Below, one piece after another: positions 1 to 59,416 of a stretch of DNA of 64,000 bases (position 1 is the stretch's first letter; every line of letters starts with the position of its first letter). The notes under the pieces were generated by a model that worked only from the letters and a program-made list of their open reading frames with translations, did not search any database and had not been told where the DNA came from. A program made the position numbers and the translations under genes. This DNA is from Candidatus Marinacidobacterales bacterium (lineage in GTDB: Bacteria; Acidobacteriota; Vicinamibacteria; Marinacidobacterales; DATDRI01), in contig CBDCTW010000008.1 of assembly GCA_965222425.1 (NCBI GenBank), positions 178,248 to 242,247 on the forward strand, read 5' to 3'.

Positions 1-267
1 GCGAAGGACGGGTACGAATCTTTTATCTGGACGGGGAGAAGCACGTCCGAGAGACTCCAAATGGGACGAAGCTCGAGACCATCGCTCATTGGAACGGCAG
101 GCAGATTCTCATCGAGCAAGGAGGCGAAGGACGAGGGAACTATCAATGAGGTGTATGAGCTCGGGTCGGACCCCAACGTACTGGTGGTGATGTTCCGGTT
201 GAAAATTAAGCGGCTCAAAGAGCCCATCGTGATTAAGAGTGTCTACGACGCGGTAACAGACGGCTGA
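1..267 (+). other. 3' end of an upstream gene running off the window edge. Frame 3 is open from base 3 to a TGA at 147-149 (...GRQILIEQGGEGRGNYQ) and frame 1 is open from base 1 to 267. Function unknown, possibly frameshifted.
   Basis: Open reading frames start at the window edge with no start codon. Read by hand only. Confidence 0.2.
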
Positions 268-345
268 GGTTCGAAAAAAGACCCGGGAGATGTCCTCCCA
301 TGTCTTTGCTTATTGGCCAATATTGGGCAAATTGTATGCTGGTAT

Positions 346-1038
346 TCAGAATCGAAACTGAGCGGCCACGTTGGCGGTGAACCCTTCCAGCCGATCGTCG
401 AAGCGACCCGCTGCTCCGATGAACCGATAACCTCCGCCGAAACCGAGGCGAAACTTCTCGGTCACGTTCAACGTAACGTTGACCTCCGGCTCCCATCACC
501 AAGAACGCCTCTTTCACTTCGAGGCGGCTATCGAGATCGATGCCCTCGAATGGAAAGCGTCCTCTCAGCCTCTCGACCAAGTTTCCAAGATTGATATTAC
601 CAGGGTCGAGGTTTCCCGAACCGAAGTTCCCCTGACCGGGAAAACGGCCGCCTAGGAATGGGAGTCCCTCGAGTCGAAACCGATTTAGGGTTGCGGTACC
701 GCCGCCGACGAGACCCCTGACGGAAATATTCGCGACGCGCAAAGGATTGAAGAAGTACTCGAGGACTGCGCCCCCGTACTTCATGTCGGACTCGTTGCCC
801 CGTTGGTTTGAAAATAGGCGGCTCCGCCGATCAAGAACTTCTGATTGATCAGCCATCCTCCGTAAAAGCCGGCTAGGCCGGCGAACTCACCGTCCACCTC
901 GGTGAATTTGTAGTCCGGAGCGATGGGGAAATTGCTCCCGATACCGCCCTGGGTCAGCGTCTGCGTGGTTTGGCCCAGAACGGGACTGGTGAACAGGAGC
1001 ATAAATCCTAGGATTGTGAAGTTAGACTTTCTGAACAT
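346..1038 (-). pseudogene. Outer-membrane beta-barrel protein with a signal peptide (MFRKSNFTILGFMLLFTSPVLG). The reading frame changes twice, near 781-800 and near 490-500.
   Basis: The N-terminal segment (ORF 781..1134) and the C-terminal segment (...NVTLNVTEKFRLGFGGGYRFIGAAGRFDDRLEGFTANVAAQFRF, stop at 346-348) are in the same frame. The middle segment is in the 233..856 frame. The C-terminal aromatic ending is typical of a beta-barrel. Confidence 0.45.
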
Positions 1039-1274
1039 CTCTGCCTCAACTTTCTGTGTAGGGCACCTGGCCGCATTGATTGCTAGCACCTTCGTATTTT
1101 GGCGCCAGATGGCTTCACACAAGTACTGGCTCATTAGCCATCAACTGCCAGAGCATTATCGGTGCCACTGGCACTGCTGTGATTCTACTTTTGAATCAAG
1201 GGCTTCGGGACGATGGTCATGCGATTCTGTCCCTTTGCGGCGACAAGGTGTCTACTTTGGCGGATTCTTTCTCG

Positions 1275-2177
1275 CTATTCGGTAGGAGGTTTGGCGGTGG
1301 GAGCGATCGTGACGAGGTCCAGGGGGTTGACGCGGGCCTTGTTGAGCCGGGCGGACCAATGAAGGTGAGGACCGGTAACCCGCCCCGTCGCGCCCACCCG
1401 TCCTATCACCTCGCCGGGTTTCACGACTTGGCCATTCTTGACCGCCATCGATTCGAGATGGCCGTAGAACGTATAAAGTCCGAGGCCATGGTCGAGCACG
1501 ATGGTGTTCCCGGAAAAGAAGAGGTCGCTGGCCATGACGACGCGACCACGTTGCGGGGCACGCACCGGCGTGCCGGCGGGAGCGGGGAAGTCTTCACCAC
1601 TGTGCGGCGAGCGCGGCTGGTCGTTGAGGATTCGTCTCTTGCCGAAGCTTCCCGATCCTTTGACGCCCTTCACGGGTAGTTGGAAGGCTCCTTCCCAGAG
1701 GCGTGCCGCCGTCACCGCTCGAAAGATCCGCAGGAGTTGGTTGGTTTCTCTTCGCGATCTTTCGAGGTCCTCGGCGCTTAAATCGACGAACTTCTTCTGC
1801 ACCGTAATTTTCTGGACCACGAAGTTCCCGTCCCGAATGGTCACCGGAGTGCTGCAGCCTATCTCTTGACCGTTGCTCCGTTTCGATTCAACGGTAAGCG
1901 GAAGTTGGGAGGCCCTACGGCGGAGATCCACACCTAACAAGGCAAGGTGAGAGTCGCCTTCCTGCCAGAAGTGCAGCGACTGGTCGGCCCAGGTAGCTTT
2001 GACCTCCGCGGGGAATGCACTACGGACTTCGAGGAGGATAATGGCGCCTTGGGGCGGTTCTATCGTGCTCAGCGTCAACTCCAAACCGGCCGCACAGTCG
2101 ATCGTCTCCTCGGTCGAGGAGGACGCGACCGGCGAGGTCAATAGGGCAACGGTGAGCACCGCACATGCGGTTCTCAT
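1275..2177 (-). CDS. M23-family (LytM-like) metallopeptidase with an N-terminal signal peptide.
   Basis: Shows the HSGEDF...GTPVRAP...GNTIVLDHGLGLYTFYGHLESMAVKNGQVVKPGEVIGRVGATGRVTGPHLHW motifs that are typical of the M23 family. ATG at 2175-2177. Confidence 0.8.
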   Translation of the reverse strand: MRTACAVLTVALLTSPVASSSTEETIDCAAGLELTLSTIEPPQGAIILLEVRSAFPAEVKATWADQSLHFWQEGDSHLALLGVDLRRRASQLPLTVESKRSNGQEIGCSTPVTIRDGNFVVQKITVQKKFVDLSAEDLERSRRETNQLLRIFRAVTAARLWEGAFQLPVKGVKGSGSFGKRRILNDQPRSPHSGEDFPAPAGTPVRAPQRGRVVMASDLFFSGNTIVLDHGLGLYTFYGHLESMAVKNGQVVKPGEVIGRVGATGRVTGPHLHWSARLNKARVNPLDLVTIAPTAKPPTE

Positions 2178-2397
2178 TACACCCACACTATATCAATAGT
2201 GAGCGGTATCCCTGAACCAGCAAGCTTTGTCTTGGCGTAGCCGATAAAGATCCTCGAAGGTGCTCGGCAGCGCATCCCACATATGGTGGAAACTCGATGA
2301 TGACACGCATTTGGCGCTCCGTCGAACGCCCGACATTGTCAAATTGAAGCGTCGTCCTTGCTCGATGAGCTAGAATAGGAGGGCAGTTGGACTTCGG

Positions 2398-2472
2398 GGG
2401 CGGTTAGCTCAGTGGGAGAGCGCTTGCCTTACAAGCAAGATGTCACAGGTTCAAATCCTGTACCGCCCACCA
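2398..2472 (+). tRNA. tRNA-Val, anticodon TAC.
   Basis: Cloverleaf folded by hand: acceptor GGGCGGT/ACCGCCC, D arm GCTC-AGTGGGA-GAGC, anticodon arm CTTGC-CTTACAA-GCAAG, T arm ACAGG-TTCAAAT-CCTGT, discriminator A, encoded CCA. Confidence 0.85.
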
Positions 2473-4633
2473 GACCCCACGTAGATTGGCCCCCGTCCGG
2501 CTGTTGTACTTTGCCCCAGCGCCAGCTAGGGAGCTTGGGGCCAGCAACTTTACTGTCGGAATTCGACAAATCGAGAGAGCCATTTCAATGCGGCGCAGCT
2601 TGGCCCGACGGGCTCTGTGTGTCCTCTTGACGCTGGCAGCCTGCAGTCCCTTTGTTTGGGCAAAGGACACCGCCATCGCCGCCATTGATGGGCCCGAGCC
2701 GCCCATGCCCCCCGCGGTGCTGAGCCGTGACACCGAGGGCCGTCTCACGCTGCGGGCCACCCGTCTGGCCGAGCCCATCGTCGTCGACGGCCGCCTCGCG
2801 GAGCTCATCTACCGCCAGGTTCCGTCGATGACGGAGTTCATTCAACAGGAGCCCATCGAGGGCGAGCTCGCGACCGAACAGACGGAAGTCTGGGTCTTTT
2901 TCGATGACGACAACATCCATGTCTCTGCCCGCTGCTGGGACAGCCATCCAGAGAGAATGGTGGCCAACGAAATGCGGAGGGACAACCGGAACATACAAAA
3001 CAACGAGAATTTCGCGGTTATCTTCGACACCTTTTACGACCGGCGCAACGGATTCCTCTTCCACACTAATCCGTTGGGGGCGATCTTCGACGCTCAAGTC
3101 ACTGACGAGAGGATTGTCAATTCGGACTGGAACACCGTGTGGGACGTAAAAACCGGCCGTTGGCAACGTGGTTGGCTGGTGGAGATGAAAATCCCATTCC
3201 GGTCGCTTCGCTATAAAGGCGTCGATACCGAGATTTGGGGGATCAACTTCAGGCGCATCGTGAGGTGGAAGAACGAAACGAGCTATCTGACGCCCGTTGC
3301 CGCCGCCTTCCGCCAAGCTGGTATCGCCAAGCTCTCTCAGGGAGCGACAATGGTAGGTCTCGAGACACCCTCGCAGGCCCTCAACCTCGAGCTCAAACCC
3401 TACGCCATCGCCGCGGCCAACACCGATCTGGAAGCCGACCCCCCGCTCGAGAACGACCTCGACGGCGACGTCGGTTTCGATCTCAAGTACGGAGTCCTCG
3501 TGGCTTGACATTCGACTTCACATTGAACACCGACTTCGCCCAAGTGGAGGCCGACGAGCAGCAGGTGAATTTGACGCGGTTCGGTCTCTTCTTCCCCGAG
3601 AAACGTGATTTTTTCCTCGAGGGTAAGGATATTTTTGCTTTCGGTGGAGTCGGCACGAGGCGAGGGTTCGAACGTGCCGATAACACCCCCATCATGTTTT
3701 TCAGTCGGCAGATCGGGCTCTACGATGAAGAGGTGGTGCCCATCAACGCCGGCGCACGGCTCACCGGCCGCGCGGGAGCCTACACGTTGGGCTTACTGGC
3801 GATTCAGACTGATGAGCTCCCGCAACTGGCGATCCCTAAGACGGATTTCGGTGTTGTGCGCGTGAAACGAGACGTGCTTCGCCGCAGCAACATTGGATTC
3901 ATCGGCACGTACCGGTCACCCGTTTTCGAAGCCAACGACACGAACGATTCGAACCAATTGTTTGGCATCGACGGAAACTTCACCTTTTACCAGAACGTGA
4001 ACGTTAGCGCCTACTACGCGCGAAGCGAAACAACCGGTTTGAGTGGGGATAACGCCAGTTATCGCGGCCGCTTCCACTATGGAGGCGATTTATGGGCTTT
4101 CGAGGTCGAGCACTTGGTGGTGGAGGAGAATTTCAACCCTGAGATCGGTTTTTTACGCCGGGAAGACATTGAGCAAAGTTTCGCGGAGCTGCGCTTCAAT
4201 CCCCGCCCACAATGGAGTGACGCGATACGGAAGTTCACTGTCAAAGGGAATTTCGACTACATCAATAATCGCGATGGGCAGCTCGAGTCGCGACGGGCCA
4301 ACTTCTCGTTCGGTATCGATTTCGAGAGCGGTGATCGCTTCTTCAGTTCGTATACCCGGAACTTCGAGTTCTTGGATGAAGAGTTCGACATCACCGATGA
4401 CGTGATCATTCCCTTTGGCGAGTACCGATTCAACCGCTACGAGGCTGGGTACCGATTCGGCCCACAGCGGAGGGTGTCTGGCTTGATCGGCCTAGAGAGG
4501 GGGACCTTCTACAGTGGCGATCGGACCGAGTTGTTCTACTTCGGCCGGTGGGAGCTGACCAAACAGCTGTCCCTCGAGCCTAGTGAACCGCCCCGGGTTT
4601 CCCGGAGACTCCAACTCTTGAGAGGATGGAGTC

Positions 4634-5868
<1,235 letters not shown>

Positions 5869-6203
5869 AACAGTCTCCGGAAAACCCGGGGCGGTTCACT
5901 AGGCTTTCCCTCAATTGGGTCGACTTGCCCGAAGGCAGCTTCACCACCAATCTGGTTCGGTTGTGGGTCAACTACATGATCTCGCCGCGTATCTTCTTGG
6001 GCGCACTGGTGCAGTACAATTCAAGCGACAATCTGGCCGCAACCAACATCCGCTTTCGCTGGGAGTATCAGCCGGGGAGTGACTTCTTTGTCGTGTACAG
6101 CGACGGAAGAGACGCGCTTCTGCTCGATGATAGAGGATTGCCGCGGCTAGAGACACGCTCCTTGGTCATCAAGTTCACACGATTCTTCCGGTTCTAGCCC
6201 GAT

Positions 6204-16225: not shown

Positions 16226-16255
16226 CCGAAGCGTGAGGTTTGGGGCCGTCCCGTC

Positions 16256-17074
16256 CTGTGCCAAAACTCGGCCCTTTTGAAATAGGCCATAAATCAGCAG
16301 CTTAGTGTTTGTGTTTGCGACCGTGCCAAGGGCCGCAGGCTCTACAATCGTCTTGGGCGGACGGGTCGTCACCATGCAGAAGACCACGTAGGCGAGAGCG
16401 AATATCCAAGCGTGTTCCTGAATCTGTCGCAGCGATAGCGCCCCCATGAGCCTTGATGAAGGTGCTCCACGGCATACTCTTGCTCCGCTCCGGGGCAGGC
16501 GCGATACCGTGCTCGGCGAGGGCCCCCTTGATGGTGTTGCGCCCAAGTTCATATCCGAGGTTCTTGAGTGCGCCCTGCAGGCGCGTATATCCGCATGTCG
16601 GGTTCTCCCGTGCCACACGTACCATGAGCTCACGGACGTCTTTCGCCGTGGGAGGTCGGCCTGGACTCCGATTCTTGGTGCCATCGTACTTGGCTGCGAT
16701 GAGGTAGCGGTACCAGCGCAGCAGCGTAGCGGGTGTGGCAACGGACGCAATCTCGGCCAGCACCCAGCGGCCCAAGGCCTGGGCCTTGACGGCGAGCCTA
16801 CGCCGGTCGTCGTCGGAGAGCCTGAGACGTTTGCCCCGAACCCGGCTCGGAGCACACGGTTCTCCTCTCGCAGTTAGTCAATCACGTCCTGCTGCTGGCG
16901 GTTGACATAGCCAGAACGAGCAGTAAGAATTGCACATGGTACGTCATGATGGAGCTGAAGATAACACCCTCGGGCCAGACGATTGTAAAGCCCACGGCCC
17001 TTGACCTAGTCGCAAAACACAGACTCTAAGTGCCTGATTTATGGCCTATTTCAAAAGGGCCGAGTTTTGGCACA
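16256..17074 (-). mobile_element. Internally deleted, non-autonomous derivative of the IS481-like element ISx. Both termini are present and only the N-terminal third of the transposase survives.
   Basis: TGTGCCAAAACTCGGCCC... at 16256 and ...GGGCCGAGTTTTGGCACA at 17074. The interior jumps from near the right end (..GTTCCTGAA) directly into transposase codons (TCTGTCGCAGCGATAGCGCC...). Compared against the intact copy at 50485-51902. Confidence 0.7.
16302..16775 (-). pseudogene. ISx transposase fragment (helix-turn-helix N-terminal region only).
   Basis: [83 protein letters not shown]... matches residues of about 70-210 of the ORF at 50608-51678. Confidence 0.7.
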
Positions 17075-17202
17075 GGACGGGGTGTGGCCTGGGATTACTT
17101 GAACGACGCCCGCTAGGCTTTACTCACCAACTTTCCATTGACGTTTGACAACACACCCTAGTCTGGAACTAATCGGCTACTTGGTTAATACGGGAGGGAT
17201 CT

Positions 17203-25544: not shown

Positions 25545-25620
25545 AGCTCGTCCTGTGCCAAAACTCGGCCCATTTGAAATAGACCATAAATCAGCAGCTT
25601 AGTGTCTGTGTTTCCGACTG
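25545..25620 (+). repeat. Solo ISx left-end fragment.
   Basis: GTCCTGTGCCAAAACTCGGCCCATTTGAAATAGACCATAAATCAGCAGCTTAGTGTCTGTGTTTCCGAC. Confidence 0.7.
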
Positions 25621-25711
25621 GGCAGCGAGTTGCGATCTTCTTTATTGCGGACGACAGCCGGTCTGATCTCCACCTTCGGCCAGCCCGGCGCGGATCGCCT
25701 ATAATCCGGCC

Positions 25712-29493: not shown

Positions 29494-29504
29494 GAGGCGC
29501 CCCC

Positions 29505-29590
29505 GTCCTGTGCCAAAACTCGGCCTTTTTTAAATAGCCCATAATTCAGCTGCTTAGTGTCTGTGTTTGCGACCGGGCCAAGGGCGGCAA
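29505..29590 (+). repeat. Solo ISx left-end fragment.
   Basis: CCCCGTCCTGTGCCAAAACTCGGCCTTTTTTAAATAGCCCATAATTCAGCTGCTTAGTGTCTGTGTTTGCGACCGGGCCAAGGGCGG. Confidence 0.7.
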
Positions 29591-43701: not shown

Positions 43702-43946
43702 GACCACGACATGGGCGCAGTTTCTTCGGAGTCACTGGGACACCCTTGCCGCTGCCGATTTCTTCACCACCGAAATCTGGACTCCCGCGGTTCTGGTTAC
43801 GTTCTACGTCTTGTTCGCGATTCAGCTGAAGACCCGCCGGGTCCATATCTCGATACCCACACCAAACCCGGACCGAGTCTTCATGAAACAAGTAGCGCTC
43901 GACCTTGCCGCGTTCGACGACAGCTTTCTCCGGGGCTACTCGCACC

Positions 43947-45040
43947 TGTGCCTTCTATTTATTCATCCGCACGCACCAAACTTGATTAATCTCCGGTCTG
44001 CCAGCACCATGCCGGCATGATTTCGTCGTTTGTTCGCGCTCTCATCTCTGCCTTCAAGGCTCGTCGCGAGCTGGCTCTCGAGAATGTCGCTCTTCGGCAG
44101 CAGCTCGCCGTCCTCCGCCGTTCCGTGAAACGGCCGCGGCTCTCGAATGCCGACCGCGGGTTTTGGGTGCTGTTGCGCAGAATCTGGACTGACTGGGAGA
44201 GCGTCCTCGTCATCGTGAAACCTGAGACGGTCATCCGCTGGCACCGTTGTGGGTTCAGACGATATTGGACTTGGAAGAGCCGACGGCGTAGGCCCGGACG
44301 ACCAGGCGTCGCTCCCGAAATACGTGAGCTGATACGGAACATGAGCAGGGCCAACCCTCTCTGGGGAGCTCCCCGCGTGCATGGCGAGCTGGCGAAGCTA
44401 GGCATCTCCATTTCCCAGGCAGCCGTCTCCAAGTATAGGGTTCGCCATCGCATGCCACCGTCCCATACTTGGCGGAGCTTTCTCGATAATCATGTAAAGG
44501 ACTTGGTGTCGCTCGACTTTTTCACTTTGCCGACCGCAACCTTCAGAGTTCTGTTCATCTTCATCGTCCTTCGCCACGACCGTCGCCGTATCGTTCATTT
44601 CAATGTCACCGAACATCCTTCTGCCGAGTGGACGGCGCAGCAAATGGTCGATGCTTTTCCATGGGACACGGCGCCTCGGTACCTGGTACGGGATCGAGAC
44701 CAGACCTACGGAGCGTACTTCGATACTCGCGTCGACGGTCTCGGGATAGAGCAGGTCCTTACCGCACCGCGCTCCCCGTGGCAGAATCCATTTGTCGAAA
44801 GGATAATCGGCTCCATTCGACGTGAGTGTCTCGACCATGTGATTGTCCTCGACGAGCGGCACCTGAGGCGAATCCTACGCAAATACGTCGACTACTATCA
44901 TTCGTGCCGGACTCATTTGTCGCTTGAGAAGGACGCGCCCGAGCCTCGCCGAGTAGAGTCACCGGCGATGGGCAAAGTCAGTGCCATTCCAAAGGTCGGT
45001 GGTCTCCATCATTGTTACACTCGACGCGCTGCTTGAGTCC
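43947..45040 (+). mobile_element. IS481-like insertion sequence, family E. The left end and the transposase are present, but the right end is not recognisable.
   Basis: Left end CCTGTGCCTTCTATTTATTCATCCGC.... The matching right-end motif (...GCGGATGAATAAATAGAAGGCACAGG) is seen only at 19899-19923 and 55438-55462. Confidence 0.55.
44017..45036 (+). CDS. Transposase with helix-turn-helix and rve integrase-core domains (IS481-like).
   Basis: ...[65 protein letters not shown].... Confidence 0.75.
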   Translation: MISSFVRALISAFKARRELALENVALRQQLAVLRRSVKRPRLSNADRGFWVLLRRIWTDWESVLVIVKPETVIRWHRCGFRRYWTWKSRRRRPGRPGVAPEIRELIRNMSRANPLWGAPRVHGELAKLGISISQAAVSKYRVRHRMPPSHTWRSFLDNHVKDLVSLDFFTLPTATFRVLFIFIVLRHDRRRIVHFNVTEHPSAEWTAQQMVDAFPWDTAPRYLVRDRDQTYGAYFDTRVDGLGIEQVLTAPRSPWQNPFVERIIGSIRRECLDHVIVLDERHLRRILRKYVDYYHSCRTHLSLEKDAPEPRRVESPAMGKVSAIPKVGGLHHCYTRRAA

Positions 45041-45248
45041 GATCCGCTCGGAACGGCTGCCGGACTTCGCACCAGCTTACACCTCTACCCCTGAGTAGAG
45101 CCGACGCCGGCTCTTAAAACGTCCTACATGAAGACGACCAAAGCATCCTGGTTGCAGGAAGTTCGCCAATCTCATACAGCTCAAGTTTATGGAAGGGACA
45201 CCTGATGGAGCGGGGCGCCGGTATCGTAACGCCGGGGCGTGTCGCAGC

Positions 45249-50090: not shown

Positions 50091-50476
50091 CCGAGGTTCG
50101 TGGAAAAAGAACGGCACCCTCCACTCCGTCATCAGAGTATCATATCAGGCGGCAACCTCCGCGTGTTCGAGAACCTCGCTCAGACGTTGGTAGCCGTCGA
50201 TGCGTCGTAGTTGAATCTGGCCAGAGGCGATAAGCCCAAACAGCAAAGCGACCGCGGACTCCTCGCTGGAGAACGACGCTTGGGTTTTCGTCCGGCGTCG
50301 AAACTCGCGGTTGAGATTCTCCAGAGCATTGGTCGTTCGAATCGATTTCCACATGGCACGAGGGAATTCATAGAAGGTCAGCAGCTGATTACCGGCCTCC
50401 TCTAGGCTTCGGACGACGGCCGGCGCGAGAGGCGTCCACTTGGCGACGAGCTCGTCATAGGCTTTGCGAGCATCGA
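50091..50476 (-). pseudogene. 3' fragment of a second IS256-family element, family G. It carries the transposase C-terminus and the right inverted repeat and is truncated by the ISx insertion.
   Basis: ...IDARKAYDELVAKWTPLAPAVVRSLEEAGNQLLTFYEFPRAMWKSIRTTNALENLNREFRRRTKTQASF... is near-identical to 57150-57513. It shares the 3' flank GATATGATACTCTGATGACGGAGTGGAGGG.... Confidence 0.65.
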
Positions 50477-50484
50477 TCCAGTCC

Positions 50485-51902
50485 TGTGCCAAAACTCGGC
50501 CCTTTTGAAATAGGCCATAAATCAGCAGCTTAGTGTCTGTGTTTGCGACTGGGCCAAGGGCCGTAGGCTTTACAATCGTCTGGCCCGAGGGTGTTATCTT
50601 CAAATCCATGATGACGTACCATGTGCAATTCCTACTGCTCGTTCTGGCTGGCTGGGTCAACCGCCAGCAGCAGGATGTGATCGACTACCTGCAAGAGGAG
50701 AACCGTGTGCTCCGAGCCGGGCTTCGGGGCAAGCGTCTCAGGCTCTCTGACGACGACCGGCGCAGGCTCGCGGTCAAGGCCCAAGCTTTAGGCCGCGAGG
50801 CGCTGGCCCAGATTGCGTCCGTTGCCACACCCGCTACGCTTGTGCGCTGGTACCGCCACCTCATCGCAGCCAAGTACGATGGCAGCAAGAACCGGAGCCC
50901 AGGCCGACCTCCGACGGCGAAGGACATCCGTGAGCTCATTGTGCGCGTGGCGCGGGAGAACCCGACGTGGGGATATACGCGCCTGCGAGGCGCACTCAAG
51001 AACCTCGGACATGAACTCGGACGCAACACCATCAAGAGGCTCCTCGCCGAGCACGGTATCGCGCCGGCTCCGGAGCGGGGCAAGAGCATGTCGTGGAGCA
51101 CTTTCCTCAAGGCTCATTGGGGCGCCATCGCTGCGACAGACCTGTTCACCGTCGAGGTTGTGAACCCGTTCGGGCTCGTCCGCTACCATGTCCTGTTTGT
51201 CATCGATATCGCCACTCGCTGCGTGTGCATCGGTGGGATGACCTCGGACCCAAACGGGGAGTGGATGAAGCAGGCGGCAAGAAACCTCACGGACGTGTGG
51301 GATGGTTTCCTCCTTGGCAAGCGGTACCTCATCCACGACCGGGACCCGCTATTCACCGAGGCGGTACATGGGCTCTTGAGAGATTCAGGTGTGAAGCCCC
51401 TCCGCCTTCCCGCTAATAGTCCGAATCTGAACGCATACGCGGAAAGATTCGTTCTCTCCATACGTCGAGAGTGTCTCGACCGCTTCGTACCTCTCAATGA
51501 GCGACACCTGCGGACAGCGGTAACCGAATACGTAGTGCACTATCACACAGAACGGAATCACCAAGGTCTCGGCGACGAGCTCCTCACACCTCTGCCGGCA
51601 AGCGCGAATGACGCTGGCCCCATCGTGTCGCGAGAGCGACTTGGGGGCATTCTCAACTACTACTGCCGTGCCGCGTAGATGGTCGCCGGCGACGGTAGCC
51701 CCTCGGCGGGCTCGACCGGCGTAGCGTGGAAACAGCTTCAGGAACATGCTTCGATATTCGCTCTCGACTAGGTGGTCATCTGCATGGTGACGACCCGCCC
51801 GCCCAAGACGATTGTAAAGCCCACGGCCCTTGGCCCGGTCGCAAACACAGACACTAAGTTGCTGATTTATGGCCTATTTCAAAAGGGCCGAGTTTTGGCA
51901 CA
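50485..51902 (+). mobile_element. Intact IS481-like insertion sequence, ISx (about 1.42 kb), with unusually long inverted ends.
   Basis: The ends, matching over about 95 bp, read TGTGCCAAAACTCGGCCCTTTTGAAATAGGCCATAAATCAGCAGCTTAGTGTCTGTGTTTGCGAC...GGGCCAAGGGCCGT.GGCTTTACAATCGTCT and the reverse complement at 51902. Flanked by GTCC/GGAC. Confidence 0.8.
50608..51678 (+). CDS. ISx transposase (helix-turn-helix and rve integrase core).
   Basis: [38 protein letters not shown]...[50 protein letters not shown].... Confidence 0.8.
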
Positions 51903-51905
51903 GGA

Positions 51906-52013
51906 CGGGGTCGCCTATCGCAGAGCCAGTGCCGCGTCGGCTGGTCTCCGCGAATTTCGACAACGCCTCTAGGATTCGAGATTTCGGCTCTGTTCGCATT
52001 TTCGGACACGACG
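51906..52013 (-). repeat. Solo end fragment of a family-D-like IS, directly abutting the ISx right end.
   Basis: The reverse complement aligns to 26304-26410 (...GGTCTCCGCGAATTT.GA.AACGCCTCTAGGATTCGA...). Confidence 0.55.
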
Positions 52014-52107: not shown

Positions 52108-52428
52108 TTAGACATTGGAGGCAAAATTCTCACCAGTTCTGATTTTTCGTCGGATCTCCCTCTTCGTTGCATTCACCGCGTAGTCTTTATCGCCACCTTC
52201 CACTGTTGCGACAACTCGGCCACGTGATCGGTCAGGAGGACACCGTTCGCATATGAAATCCGTTATTGCACGAAGATAATCTTCACTGTAAACCAGTTCC
52301 GCATCACAGCGTGGGCAGTAACACCAAAGACTGGAGATCTCGCGACCAATCCATGACCAACGCCATTTTGCTCCGTACAGCATATCTTCGGTATAGCTTC
52401 CATATGTTGGTTCATTCCGTGGCCAAAG
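52108..52428 (-). CDS. Small zinc-ribbon-like protein (CxxC...CxxC), possibly the 3' part of a gene split by IS3 copy 2.
   Basis: ...WCYCPRCDAELVYSEDYLRAITDFICERCPPD.... The frame stays open up to the IS boundary at 52428. Confidence 0.3.
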   Translation of the reverse strand, partial: LWPRNEPTYGSYTEDMLYGAKWRWSWIGREISSLWCYCPRCDAELVYSEDYLRAITDFICERCPPDRSRGRVVATVEGGDKDYAVNATKREIRRKIRTGENFASNV

Positions 52429-52478
52429 TGAACCGCCCCGGGTTTCCCGGAGACTCCAACTCTTGAGAGGATGGAGTC

Positions 52479-53713
<1,235 letters not shown>

Positions 53714-53743
53714 AACAGTCTCCGGAAAACCCGGGGCGGTTCA

Positions 53744-53993
53744 AAGACCCACAAAGAGTCTCACAAGACCAACAAGCGCAAACAATCCGATAATTAAGAA
53801 ATACCCAACCAGGTATCGGATAGTGGGAGATCAGTGCTGCCCATATCCAAGAGATACCCGCCCAAACCCAAGACATTGTTTTTACCAAGAAACCGCGGGA
53901 CAGCAGGATAGCAGATAGGATTAGTCCTCCCACTACCGTTACGATAATTCCGTTTCTCACGGGATGCGGATGCTCATTTGCCACCGGTTCCAT
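53744..53993 (-). pseudogene. 5' part of a small membrane-protein gene interrupted by IS3 copy 2.
   Basis: MEPVANEHPHPVRNGIIVTVVGGLILSAILLSRGFLVKTMSWVWAGISWIWAALISHYPIPGWVFLNYRIV.... The track ORF runs on into the IS terminus. Confidence 0.35.
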
Positions 53994-54380
53994 CCTTCAG
54001 CTTTAGCGGAGACCGCGCGGCCTTGCCCTTTGTCCTATTGAGTCCACAAGCGTGAAGAGTCCTCTTTCGACATTGACCGCTCTGACGCCACCGCAGCGAG
54101 AGGCAGGAGCTTCGTTGACCACCTTGAACCGCGCCCGGGTTTTCCGGAGACTGTCTTAGTTGGTTCCCGCCATCTCGAACGAGCTTTATCTGGAACCAAT
54201 AGTAGTTCATCTCGTACTCGACCGGGGGGGATGCTTCCGATTGGTTCCATTACGGGGCGCGCGGAACTTGATTAGTCTCCGGTCTGCTGACAAATGCCTG
54301 AGCTGCTGAACCAACAAGAACTCCGCCGTCGGTTGCCATGCCCGCTGGCTGGGTCTAGACTTCCGCTTTGGGTCGTGACG

Positions 54381-54488
54381 ATTGGAATGGGAGTGTTGTC
54401 ATTGAAGCGAATTGCTAAGTTCCAATTGGTGCTACGAGTTATAGGTGCTTATATTGGAGTGGGAGTGTTGTCAATGAAGCGAATCGCT
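54381..54488 (+). repeat. Two 36-bp direct repeats spaced 72 bp apart, covering the region just upstream of and into the start of the peroxiredoxin gene.
   Basis: ATTGGAATGGGAGTGTTGTCATTGAAGCGAATTGCT at 54381-54416 and ATTGGAGTGGGAGTGTTGTCAATGAAGCGAATCGCT at 54453-54488. The second copy contains the ATG (MKRIAGWAL...). Confidence 0.6.
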
Positions 54489-55001
54489 GGCTGGGCTCTT
54501 GGTGTGATGTTTATCGGAGGCTCCCTGGGTGCTGCCGAACTACAGGTTGGCGACGAGGCACCCGACTTCGAGCTCCAAGGCACCGACGGAAAGTCCTACC
54601 GGCTCTCCGAGCTAAGGGGCAAGGCTGTGGTCCTTGCGTGGTTTCCGAAAGCGTTTACCGGTGGTTGAACGGCCGAATGCAAGTCGCTCCGTGAGAGCGG
54701 CGACGAAATCCGTGCTTTTGCGGTCAACTACTTCGCCGCGAGCTGTGACACGGTCAAGACTAACAAGGAATTCGCCGAATCTCTCTCTCTCGACTATCCG
54801 ATCCTGAGCGATCCCGACAAAGGCGTCGCGAAGTCCTATGGGGTCGTAACGGCGAAGCGTGAATTGCCGCACCGCTGGACTTACTATGTCGACGCCGAAG
54901 GCAAGATCCTCTACATCGACAGAAGCGTCAACACGCACAGCGCGGGAGCGGATGTCGCGGCGCGATTGAAGAGGCTCGGGGTGCCGGCCTTGAGCAAGTA
55001 A
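54474..55001 (+). CDS. Peroxiredoxin (AhpC/TSA, Bcp/PrxQ-like) with an in-frame TGA at the catalytic cysteine codon. Candidate selenocysteine peroxiredoxin, or alternatively a nonsense mutant.
   Basis: [64 protein letters not shown]-[TGA at 54666-54668][86 protein letters not shown]...ALSK*. The frame is continuous on both sides of the TGA. It fits the Pxxx(T/S)xxC motif with the C position occupied by TGA. Confidence 0.6.
54683..54704 (+). promoter_or_regulatory. Hairpin 14 nt downstream of the in-frame TGA. Candidate bacterial SECIS-like element.
   Basis: GTCGCTC-CGTGA-GAGCG(G)CGAC. Stem of 5 plus 4 bp with a one-nucleotide bulge and a 5-nt apical loop. Position and size are compatible with bacterial SECIS elements, which lie about 11-40 nt after UGA. 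Confidence 0.3.
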
Positions 55002-55018
55002 GACCGGCGAGAGCCTCC

Positions 55019-55462
55019 TGTGCCTTCTATTTATTCATCCGCGCGCCCAGAACTTGATTGATCTCCGGTCTGTCGGCACCATGCCTGCATGGTTTCGTCG
55101 TTCGTTCGCGCTCTCATCTCTGCCTTCAAGGTTCGTCGCGAGCTAGCTCTTGAGAATGTCGCTTTTCGGCAGCAGCTCGCCGTCCTCCGTCGTTCGGTGA
55201 AACGGACGCGGCTCTCGAATGTCGACCGCGGGTTTTGGGTGCTGTTGCGCAGAATCTGGACTTACTGGGAGGGATGTGTCCCGAGGTTCGTGGAAAAAGA
55301 ACGACGCGCCCGTCCTGTGCCAAAACTCGGCCCTTTTGAAATAGCCCACAAATCAGCAGCTTAGACGCCCTTGGAATCCGGGCAAAATCCAGGGTATTTC
55401 GCGCCGCAGGGCTGACTTCCGACACCCATGAGCTGGCGGATGAATAAATAGAAGGCACAGGC
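55019..55462 (+). repeat. Nested IS debris. A 5' fragment of a family-E IS lies at 55019 to about 55267 and includes 62 N-terminal transposase codons. The left inverted repeat of IS256-family G lies at 55268-55310. A 145-bp chimeric MITE-like unit lies at 55318-55462, with an ISx-type end at one side and a family-E-type end at the other.
   Basis: CCTGTGCCTTCTATTTATTCATCCGC... at 55019. GGGATGTGTCCCGAGGTTCGTGGAAAAAGAACG is the reverse complement of the flank at 57520-57555. The MITE-like unit reads TGTGCCAAAACTCGGCCCTTTTGAAATAGCCCACAAATCAGCAGCTTAGACGCCC...GGATGAATAAATAGAAGGCACAGG. Confidence 0.55.
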
Positions 55463-55503: not shown

Positions 55504-56681
55504 ATGATCCGTTCGTTGGTCCCCCTTGGTCTAATGCACGTTCACGAGTTGCTCGACGACGAAGTGAAGGCGTTGGCGGGAGAGCGATCCTCTCGCAAGG
55601 ACGAGCTGGAGCGCGGTCGCCGTCCCGGAAGCAACCCGGGCACGGTAGGGCTTGGCGGCCAGCGGGTACCGATCCGTGTGCCACGGGTTCGGAGCATCGA
55701 GGGAGGAGAGATTCCGCTTCGCTGCTACGAGGCGTTGAGCCACGGCGGTGAGGTGAATGATCTTCTGCTGAAACGAGTTCTGTACGGAATCTCTTGTTGC
55801 AACTACGAGGCGGCAGCGGAAGCGATTCCGGGCGCCATCGGGCTGTCGAGCTCAACGGTGTCCCGAGGGTTCGTGCAAGCGAGCGCTGCGAAGCTGCGGG
55901 AGATGCAGGAACGGGATCTGACCGGCGAGGATGTGGTGGCGCTGTTTCTGGATGGGAAGACATTCGCCGAGGCAACGATGGTCGTGGCTCTGGGCATCAC
56001 GCTTTGCGGGGAAAAACGCTTCTTGGGCTTCGTGGAGACGGACACGGAGAACGCGCAGGTGTTGACGCCGTTCCTGCGTTCACTGCTCGAGCGGGGACTC
56101 GATATCTCCCAGGGTCTGCTGGTGATCATCGACGGCGGCAAGGGTCTCCAGGCGGCAGTCAAGAAGGCATTCCGTAACGGGCCCTGATACAACGCTGCCA
56201 GTGGCACAAACGTGAAAACGTAGTGAGCTACCTGTCCAAGGGCGAGCAGGCGTCATGGCGCAAGCGGCTCCAGTGGGCCTACAACAGGCCGGAGTACGAA
56301 GAGGCCCTCACTGCGCTCGAGCAACTCCACGGTGAGTTAGAAGAGCGGAACCAATCCGCAGCTGGCAGCCTGGAGGAAGGCCTCGAGGAGACGCTGACGT
56401 TGCATCGACTCGGCGTGCACGCGGTGCTGGGCCGTTCGTTCAAGACGACGAACTGCCTTGAGTCCGTCAATGCTCTCGTCGAGGAACGCTGCGCGAAGGT
56501 CGACCACTGGAAGAACTCGAGCCAACGCCAGCGCTGGTTGGCAACGGCGCTCGTAGACATCGAACCGCGCTTGAGGAAGGTGGTGGGCTACCGCCATCTT
56601 CCCAAGCTTCGCGAAGCTCTCAAGCGGGAACTGAAGATCGAGGCGAAGACATCAACCGTATCGAAGAAGAAGGTCGCTTAA
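55504..56681 (+). pseudogene. IS256-family transposase, family H, with a frameshift between the second and third catalytic regions.
   Basis: Frame 1 ends ...VIIDGGKGLQAAVKKAFRNGP*. The conserved continuation LIQRCQWHKRENVVSYLSKGEQ... is in another frame (ORF 56223..56681). Confidence 0.65.
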
Positions 56682-56730
56682 ACGTGAGCCGTGGAGAGTT
56701 TCAACTAAGAATGGGCTTGACTCGAGCGCG

Positions 56731-57513
56731 GTGTCTCGCGTGGTTAGCTGGCTGAAGGAGCGCTTCGAGGAATGGCAGAACCGTGCTCTCAGCGAGGAGG
56801 TCTACGCGATCGTTTACCTGGACGGCTTCCACCTGAAAGTGCGGATGGCGAAACGTGTGATCAGCGTACCCGTACTGGTCGCGCTCGGGGTCGCGCCAGA
56901 CGGGCACAAACGTCTGTTGTCATTGCGTCTGGCGGTGAGCGAAGCCTCGACGCGTTGGGGCTCCGTGCTGGAGGGACTCCAGGCTCGAGGACTCCGGGCT
57001 CCCAAGCTAGTGATCAGCGACGGCCACAAGGGGCTGACGAAAGTGCTGGAGAAGTGGCCGGGGTGCCGGTTGCAGCGATGTACCGAGCACAAGCGCGCCG
57101 ACTTGCTCGAACATTGCCCGGCGCACGCACGCCGTGAGCTCCGGCGTGACTACAACCGGATCGTCTGCGCCAAGAACGGGATCGATGCTCGCAAAGCCTA
57201 TGACGAGCTCGTCGCCAAGTGGACGCCTCTCGCGCCGGCCGTCGTCCGAAGCCTAGAGGAGGCCGGTAATCAGCTGCTGACCTTCTACGAATTCCCTCGT
57301 GCCATGTGGAAATCGATTCGAACGACCCATGCTCTGGAGAATCTCAACCGCGAGTTTCGACGCCGGACGAAAACCCAAGCGTCGTTCTCCAGCGAGGAGT
57401 CCGCGGTCGCTTTGCTGTTTGGGCTTATCGCCTCTGGCCAGATTCAACTACGACGCATCGACGGCTACCAACGTCTGAGCGAGGTTCTCGAACACGCGAA
57501 GGTTGCCGCCTGA
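56731..57513 (+). pseudogene. IS256-family transposase, family G, with the N-terminus truncated or displaced. It starts about 25 aa before the first catalytic Asp. The right inverted repeat lies at about 57520-57555.
   Basis: ...VYLDGFHLKVRMA...LVISDGHKGLTKVLEKWPGCRLQRCTEHKRADLLEH.... The C-terminus is near-identical to the fragment at 50145-50476. Confidence 0.65.
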
Positions 57514-59107: not shown

Positions 59108-59221
59108 TGCTCCTGGAGTAGGGGCAGGTCTTTTCTCCGCCCTCCGATGCCCCGCGATCGCGTGAGGCCAAAATACTCATGTGGCTTCCCGATGGTAGAA
59201 ACGTAGCAGCCCGCCAAGCCC

Positions 59222-59360
59222 GTCCTGTGCCAAAACTCGGCCCTTTTGAAATAGACCATAGATCAGCAGCTTAGTGTCTGTGTTTGCGACCGGGCCAAGG
59301 GCCGTAGGCTTTACAATCGTCTGGCCCGAGGGTGTTATCTTCAGATCCATGATGACGTAC
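59222..59360 (+). repeat. Solo 5' fragment of ISx, about 140 bp, reaching to the transposase start codon region.
   Basis: GTCCTGTGCCAAAACTCGGCCCTTTTGAAATAGACCATAGATCAGCAGCTTAGTGTCTGTGTTTGCGACCGGGCCAAGGGCCGTAGGCTTTACAATCGTCTGGCCCGAGGGTGTTATCTTCAGATCCATGATGACGTACCA. Confidence 0.7.
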
Positions 59361-59416
59361 CACGTGAAGTCTCCTCGGGAAACTTCTAGACCCGGCGAGC
59401 TGGTTCGCACACCGCC

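Follow-up and report, generated by a model that had tools for sequence, protein, structure and literature searches.

Evidence for a selenocysteine-encoding UGA in a BCP/PrxQ-type peroxiredoxin gene from a Candidatus Marinacidobacterales genome

The DNA analyzed here is a stretch of 64,000 nucleotides from contig CBDCTW010000008.1 of a Candidatus Marinacidobacterales genome, hereafter the window, and the subject of this report is a forward-strand gene within it for a putative selenocysteine (Sec)-containing peroxiredoxin. Translation of positions 54474–55001 gave an open reading frame (ORF) of 175 codons, the product of which begins MKRIAGW and ends GVPALSK, with TAA as its terminal stop and a TGA at 54666–54668 as its single internal stop. 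An original prediction, made from the sequence, had placed an AhpC/TSA peroxiredoxin on both sides of this TGA, and this was borne out: both parts lie in one frame and, with the TGA read as Cys, the product matched the Pfam family AhpC-TSA (PF00578) with an E value of 8e-35 and 119.9 bits (cut-off 26) over profile positions 1–123 of 124. The top NCBIfam model was the BCP thiol peroxidase NF006960, with a score of 81.7 that lies under the equivalog cut-off of 140, and the nearest PDB chains were the BCP peroxiredoxins 2ywn and 3drn, whose peroxidatic Cys aligns with the TGA. Homology to these solved BCP structures suggests a thioredoxin fold for the product, a putative peroxidase. In a protein search, 3,798 homologues were recovered; the top ones had 55–68% identity, were all Cys forms and came mostly from Planctomycetota. 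The product fell well below the PrxU equivalog NF040737 (51.1 bits against a cut-off of 270), nor does it carry a thioredoxin-like UxxC or UxxU motif, since it reads T-G-G-U-T-A-E-C, that is, TxxU with a Cys at +4. The N terminus resembles a signal peptide, and a comparable hydrophobic leader was present in 19 of 19 aligned Cys homologues; a mature enzyme of ~154 residues is probably exported. Coordinates of all features are collected in Table 1.

For assignment of the active site, the product was aligned with 19 Cys homologues (alignment A1). The TGA fell on the invariant Cys column C65, within WFPKAFTGG[C]TxEC, as anticipated by the original prediction, which had put it at the catalytic Cys of the peroxiredoxin motif; the other invariant columns were P58, T62, C69 and R134, the last of which we take to be the conserved catalytic arginine of peroxiredoxins. 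A motif of the PxxxTxxU type, as found here, has been named as the defining mark of Sec-peroxiredoxins (PMC13188914). The U-x-x-x-C arrangement that had also been pointed out held as far as the spacing is concerned, both C65 and C69 being invariant, but it has no special status, because it corresponds to the CP-x3-CR arrangement of the PrxQ clade and not to a UxxC redox motif. Cys at +4 is kept by most Sec forms, in the contexts TAEC, TKEC and TAQC, and by analogy with BCP/PrxQ chemistry Cys69 is probably the resolving cysteine. Elsewhere in the window TGA is an ordinary stop that ends 6 of the 13 confident genes, so the genetic code is unchanged; a global reassignment of UGA was considered and rejected on this ground.

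Recurrence of the TGA was examined by a pattern scan of one genome per bacterial or archaeal species (596 Gb in total), using the active-site motif in which the Cys codon was set to TGA. The pattern, TGGTTYCCNAARGC-N4-AC-N4-GGNTGAAC, spans 33 nt and holds 42 bits of specified sequence, from which we calculate that ~0.3 chance matches would be expected in 596 Gb. The same TGA was matched in at least 120 species genomes, and every locus uncut by a contig or locus end keeps at least 101 open codons past the TGA, coding for the rest of the peroxiredoxin. Among the 120 matches listed, a tally of record titles gave 64 Acidobacteriota (many of them Vicinamibacterales), 12 Planctomycetota, 11 Verrucomicrobiota, 11 Pseudomonadota, 10 Myxococcota or “delta”, 7 Actinomycetota and 5 others. 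With Acidobacteriota making up 64 of these 120, and with a family that has long been known, the view that a selenoprotein would be notable in this lineage had to be given up; Acidobacteria were previously known to hold selenoproteins. Two of the matching loci, L027 (OZ250169.1) and L064 (OZ253507.1), come from other Candidatus Marinacidobacterales genomes (class Vicinamibacteria) and, although assembled independently of the window, have a TGA and downstream hairpin identical to those described here.

A Cys at +4 was missing from some of the Sec forms, namely the Actinomycetota loci L011, L031, L038, L041, L087 and L119 and the Myxococcota or “delta” loci L034, L050, L053, L054, L063, L078 and L113, as exemplified by UTEELKGFRDR and UTAELAALRDS. 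By their sequences, these would constitute a variant sub-clade in which resolution proceeds by another mechanism. ORFs within ~3.5 kb of the gene were also clustered across the 120 loci in search of an operon partner or reductant, and no neighbor family occurred in more than 7 loci.

Selection downstream of the TGA could be followed with more diverged relatives. One of the two Marinacidobacterales genomes carries a second copy of the gene, L059, which has 81% nucleotide identity to that of the window. Downstream of the TGA the two differ by 42 synonymous and 17 nonsynonymous changes, giving a dN/dS of 0.056, as compared with 0.068 upstream of it; against L028 the downstream value was 0.072. 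These low downstream ratios indicate continuous translation of the part beyond the UGA over the whole of that divergence.

A hairpin starting 14 nt past the UGA had been predicted at the position of a bacterial Sec insertion sequence (SECIS), and the sequence agrees with this. In the published model of the bacterial SECIS (bSECIS), an apical loop of 3–9 nt caps a stem of 4–16 bp, a G stands within the first two loop positions, most often with G or U after it, the loop lies 16–37 nt from the UGA, and the minimum free energy (MFE) is −7.5 kcal/mol or lower (PMC13188914). The hairpin of the window starts at 54683 and has a perfect 7-bp stem, a 5-nt loop (CGUGA) with G and then U at loop positions 2–3, a distance of 21 nt from UGA to loop and an MFE of −9.6 kcal/mol, all within the model; as a 19-mer it is more stable than its shuffled counterparts (z = −2.6). 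The structure first proposed was a bulged hairpin at 54683–54704. The hairpin itself stands, but the MFE form is the 19-nt perfect stem, and the bulged 22-nt version is an alternative register.

Covariation in the stem was assessed with 113 distinct sequences, each comprising the UGA and the next 48 nt, in an ungapped alignment. In the helix formed by columns 18–24 with 30–36, 90.8% of cells pair, whereas sliding the 3′ arm by any offset, as a control, gave at most 67% pairing. Cells changed on both sides with pairing retained numbered 68, against 12.5 ± 3 in shuffles, and none of 500 shuffles reached 68. Exchanges included C-G to G-C or U-A at the loop-closing columns 24–30, C-G to U-A at columns 22–32 and U-G to G-C at columns 19–35. 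Some lineages show a register shift by one codon or a longer stem, and in Actinomycetota the arms of a longer stem read GGGGUUC...GAACCCC around a CGUGA-type loop.

As a contrast to the Sec forms, metagenomic homologues that have TGY at this codon were collected, 119 in all and 116 of them distinct. The complete set of seven pairs is present in 72% of Sec forms versus 2% of Cys forms, and GU occupies the loop positions in 88% versus 3%. The codon at the loop specifies Arg in 108 of the 113 Sec forms but in only 19 of the 116 Cys forms, and where Arg is present its codon is CGU in 98 of 108 and 2 of 19 cases, respectively. The peptide after the active site is likewise SLRES or SLRAS in Sec forms and variable in Cys forms (SLAENG and others). 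This contrast shows that the hairpin belongs to the UGA forms and not to the protein family. The original prediction had been made to turn on whether Cys or Sec occupies this column in relatives and whether the hairpin is conserved; the homologues have Cys there, at least 120 genomes have the Sec codon, and the hairpin is conserved in the latter and absent from the former. A metagenome contig with a Cys form (L211) has TGC at the codon and retains a SECIS-like sequence, GUCGCUCCGUGCGAGCGGC, together with the CGU codon, and is consistent with a recent conversion from Sec to Cys.

Genes for Sec insertion were sought by tblastn with E. coli SelA, SelB and SelD and by ARAGORN, both in the window and in the 120 loci. 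Matches to sel genes were obtained in L089 only, a locus from an Acidobacteria metagenome-assembled genome (MAG), where selA (partial), selB and selD occupy positions 1–3655, ~1 kb upstream of the Sec-peroxiredoxin (TGA at 4849–4851). SelD of L089 carries a TGA of its own (GCC GGT TGA GCG) where E. coli SelD has Cys17 and, read in this way, is itself predicted to be a selenoprotein. Sec decoding would be expected in the source organism of the window as well.

The gene sits in a conserved cassette, the ends of which are defined from three copies only. Besides that of the window, these are L027 at 5103–5828 (− strand) and L064 at 3076–3801, each 99.2% identical to the window over the 726 bp; the flanks differ among the three copies, and the identity of the window to both Marinacidobacterales representatives is confined to the cassette. 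L027 and L064 have 1,017 bp in common with each other at 99.8%. Among the near-identical copies there are 2 substitutions in 528 coding nt versus 4 in 181 leader nt. The leader contains a promoter-like match, which is a weak candidate judged from sequence. A direct repeat across the start had been reported in the original prediction, and it was confirmed, with 36-nt copies of 92% identity spaced 72 nt apart, in all three cassette copies. The repeat is in frame, with TTG in the upstream copy where the downstream copy has ATG, and an N-terminally extended product may arise from the upstream TTG start.

The exact 64-residue N-terminal product was found in 77 blocks of the assembly collection. Several large contigs (8.13 Mb, 7.22 Mb, 1.52 Mb and 1.40 Mb), OZ250169.1 being among them, each have it at no fewer than two sites. 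These copies always lie among transposases, and often directly beside a pair of genes for a DUF2924 protein and a large serine recombinase. In mobile-element-rich DNA of Candidatus Marinacidobacterales the cassette recurs at two or more sites per genome and is >99% identical within and between genomes, as against 81% for the diverged copy L059. The ~0.7–1-kb cassette of leader, gene and SECIS might itself be mobile cargo, a suggestion that we put forward tentatively and consider rather doubtful; if true, it would represent a selenoprotein gene amplified and spread by mobile elements.

As the original prediction had stated, the gene is embedded between insertion sequence (IS) elements, and IS-derived sequence adjoins both cassette edges; homology to L027 and L064 ends on both sides exactly where this sequence starts. 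To the left lies an orphan fragment of an rve_3-type IS. To the right, a derivative of the same IS that resembles a miniature inverted-repeat transposable element (MITE) starts 16 nt past the stop codon of the gene; its positions 55018–55272 are 93% identical to the left end (43945–44199) of an intact rve_3-type IS at ~43945–45100, which encodes a 339-aa rve_3 transposase at 44017–45036. Farther out there is an IS3 copy, along with pieces of an IS256-type transposase.

Several further repeats were seen in these surroundings. The IS3-family copies at 52428–53744 and 4582–5898 are 99% identical, and an inverted, orphan IS3 3′-end fragment (54134–54227, 87–89% complementary to 53643–53735) lies just upstream of the peroxiredoxin. 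The IS256-type (Transposase_mut) gene at 55504–57513 is split into three ORFs. This part is covered by an ENA contig, ctg751858_4x_l (L001), which differs from the window at ~0.3% of positions and by its name looks like a long-read assembly of 4x coverage; some of the apparent indel pseudogenes of the window could be assembly errors rather than biology. A family of ~100–150-bp repeats occurs at 50474–50625, 51806–51913, 59219–59366, 16250–16353, 16926–17088, 29495–29585 and 25550–25623. Two inverted copies bracket a 381-aa rve_3/helix-turn-helix transposase ORF (50533–51678), solo copies are found elsewhere, and the left end of the 1,017-bp cassette common to L027 and L064 consists of one such copy; these repeats look like long IS terminal repeats.

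Table 1. Features of the Sec-peroxiredoxin locus and adjoining elements, by position in the window (CDS, coding sequence; RBS, ribosome-binding site; TIR, terminal inverted repeat)
Feature	Position	Strand	Basis
Orphan left-end fragment of rve_3-type IS, abutting left edge of cassette	54257–54300		Direct repeat D2 with 55043–55072
Conserved cassette (181-nt leader, gene, 17-nt tail)	54293–55018	+	blastn and alignment against L027 and L064
Candidate sigma-70-like promoter, TTGCCA-17-TAGACT, in conserved leader	54333–54361	+	1 site versus 0.3 ± 0.5 in shuffles; consensus match only
Direct repeat of RBS/start region, 36-nt copies (54381–54416 and 54453–54488) spaced 72 nt	54381–54488	+	Repeat family D1, 92% identity
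CDS, predicted Sec-containing BCP/PrxQ-type peroxiredoxin precursor, U at codon 65	54474–55001	+	Translation, Pfam, NCBIfam, PDB relatives, dN/dS
Probable N-terminal signal peptide, followed by ELQVGD	54474–54536	+	Basic n-region, hydrophobic stretch, small-residue site before conserved AELxVGD
Active-site motif P58-K-A-F-T62-G-G-U65 (PxxxTxxU)	54645–54668	+	P58, T62 and C65 invariant in A1
UGA, predicted Sec codon and peroxidatic residue	54666–54668	+	Invariant Cys column; TGA shared by at least 120 species genomes
Cys69 codon TGC, probable resolving Cys, four residues past Sec	54678–54680	+	Invariant in A1
Predicted bacterial SECIS hairpin, stem 54683–54689 with 54695–54701, apical loop 54690–54694 (CGUGA)	54683–54701	+	MFE, bSECIS model, covariation, contrast with Cys forms
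Arg134 codon	54873–54875	+	Invariant column R134 in A1
MITE-like, internally deleted derivative of the same rve_3-type IS, 445 bp, 33-nt TIRs	55017–55461		Inverted repeat I3, 91% complementary

Taken together, it is very probable that 54474–55001 is a genuine Sec-peroxiredoxin gene of the BCP/PrxQ subfamily. This is supported by the recurrence of the TGA in many species whose downstream frames are intact, by purifying selection beyond it, by the covariation of the hairpin and its absence from Cys forms, and by the linkage to selA-selB-selD in one genome (L089); the same lines of evidence uphold the original prediction that the TGA represents Sec, is served by a bacterial SECIS and did not arise as a nonsense mutation. 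A pseudogene, in which a TGC-to-TGA change had killed an ordinary Cys-peroxiredoxin in a decaying, IS-ridden region, would suit the many IS fragments and split transposase ORFs nearby, would call for one transversion, and would accord with the behavior of gene callers, which cut the gene to 64 aa. It does not account for a TGA that recurs in at least 120 species whose frames stay open downstream, nor for a dN/dS as low after the TGA as before it, and independent nonsense mutations would bring neither a shared, covarying, TGA-specific SECIS nor the CGU bias; the pseudogene reading is extremely improbable and effectively refuted. A sequencing or assembly error at a true TGC or TGT gains some color from the name of the related contig ctg751858_4x_l, which suggests low coverage, and from its differences from the window, but the identical TGA and hairpin in L027 and L064, two different genomes, and the same TGA in 17 contigs inspected for the exact 64-residue product make the chance of such an error negligible. 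Errors in long reads are, moreover, mainly indels and not substitutions of A for C.

Translation past the UGA with insertion of a residue other than Sec was also considered, either as Cys through a tRNA(Sec)-like tRNA(Cys)UCA (selC*) and a SelB-type factor or by near-cognate suppression. The evidence given above bears on translation past the UGA and on a SelB-type hairpin, not on the identity of the inserted residue; opal suppressors of the selC* tRNA(Cys) kind and allo-tRNAs exist, and allo-tRNAs are frequent in Acidobacteria (PMC5389517). Reports of selC*, however, come from Firmicutes, Thermodesulfobacteria, Nitrospirae and Proteobacteria, not from Acidobacteria, and always together with a full Sec system (PMC5389517); in L089 canonical selA, selB and selD adjoin the gene and SelD uses UGA, and the family has been described as a Sec family (PMC1088965, PMC13188914), so that a residue other than Sec seems highly unlikely. 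Somewhat more weight, though still with low probability, goes to the view that the family is a true Sec family but that the copy in the window was recently duplicated, travels as a passenger on mobile DNA and is not expressed. The multicopy, >99% identical cassette in transposase-rich DNA and the IS breakpoints at both of its edges speak for this, as does the failure to find a terminator. Against it, ORF, UGA and SECIS are intact, as are an RBS-like GGAG/GGGAG and the 181-nt leader with its promoter-like match; the copies differ mostly in the leader rather than in the coding sequence, and none of the three sequenced copies has a frameshift.

A number of observations weigh against a functional Sec-peroxiredoxin gene at this site. 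IS debris encloses the copy in the window on either side, the MITE-like element following shortly after the stop codon of the gene, for which no terminator could be found, so its expression is open to doubt. For a selection test on the recent cassette, the near-identical copies offer too few differences. Neither selA, selB, selD nor tRNA-Sec was found within the 64-kb window, and ARAGORN found no tRNA-Sec in the 120 loci either. A search of the window for a second selenoprotein gave 70 UGA read-through candidates in Cys or Gly context, and none of the ten most protein-like, which were read by eye, was convincing. A 60-nt fold around the site is no more stable than its shuffles (z = −0.18) and only the hairpin alone stands out; such a z-score is uninformative in GC-rich coding sequence, and comparative tests were used instead. 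An Rfam search gave no relevant match near the site, as expected from the small number of curated bacterial SECIS families.

If the gene is a Sec-peroxiredoxin as preferred here, the UGA would be recoded as Sec under the direction of the hairpin, which would act as a bacterial SECIS and recruit SelB-GTP-Sec-tRNA(Sec) to the ribosome, and translation would run 110 codons further. The resulting 175-residue product, with its signal-peptide-like leader, would be processed to the mature enzyme and probably exported. Sec65, aided by Arg134, would attack the peroxide to form a selenenic acid, Cys69 would resolve this to a selenenylsulfide, and a thioredoxin-type reductant would recycle the enzyme. 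Selenium insertion, export, catalytic cycle and reductant are all inferred here.

For the gene of the window, the choice between a Sec codon and a pseudogene is settled by these results. They also reveal a clade that is systematically mis-annotated, gene callers reporting a 64-residue stub: none of the 3,798 protein matches was a full-length Sec form, although at least 120 species carry the gene. A 12-residue protein motif combined with the GUCGCUC-CGUGA-GAGCGGC hairpin would let annotation pipelines for MAGs of Acidobacteriota, Planctomycetota and Verrucomicrobiota recover this probably exported selenoenzyme. The comparison of Sec and Cys forms provides a natural example of an RNA signal that constrains both a peptide (SLRES) and a choice of codon (CGU). 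The known working of selenoproteins is unchanged by the result.

Among known systems, the Cys peroxiredoxins of the BCP/PrxQ type (PDB 2ywn/4g2e and 3drn; the Planctomycetota and Acidobacteriota homologues P0001–P0120) have the motifs, the leader and the invariant Arg in common with the product and are 55–68% identical to it over the full length; they differ in having TGC or TGT in place of UGA, no hairpin, an unconstrained peptide (SLAENG as against SLRESG) and only rarely a CGU Arg codon. PrxU of Eubacterium acidaminophilum is described as an experimentally proven Sec-peroxiredoxin in the account of Sohling et al. (2001) given in PMC13188914. It is a peroxidase of the thioredoxin-dependent type with a peroxidatic Sec, as predicted for the window protein, but belongs to another subfamily, with a model (NF040737) of 233 positions as against the 175 aa of the BCP/PrxQ-like window protein. 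The peroxiredoxin-like thiol:disulfide oxidoreductase selenoproteins, which are defined by a thioredoxin-like UxxC (PMC1088965), share a PF00578-related fold and a redox-site Sec; the window protein, with TxxU and U-x3-C, is not a member of this UxxC/UxxU group. The SECIS of the E. coli fdhF type is similarly a stem-loop within the coding sequence just after the UGA, with a small loop carrying G and then U and a spacing of 16–37 nt. There is no sequence similarity between the two, and the stem in the window is a simple 7-bp helix without the bulged U of the fdhF element. The closest counterpart is the Sec-peroxiredoxin family with TxxU (COG1225/PF00578), known since 2001–2005 and described from bacterial genomes and from the Sargasso Sea and Global Ocean Sampling metagenomes (PMC1088965, PMC1794560, PMC13188914). 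Pfam family, Sec at the peroxidatic PxxxTxxU site, a SECIS immediately downstream and widespread Cys homologues are all alike, and no essential difference was seen, the window protein adding a signal-peptide-like leader and a Cys four residues past the Sec. The gene of the window is thus a further member of this established family, and one that is common in its lineage.

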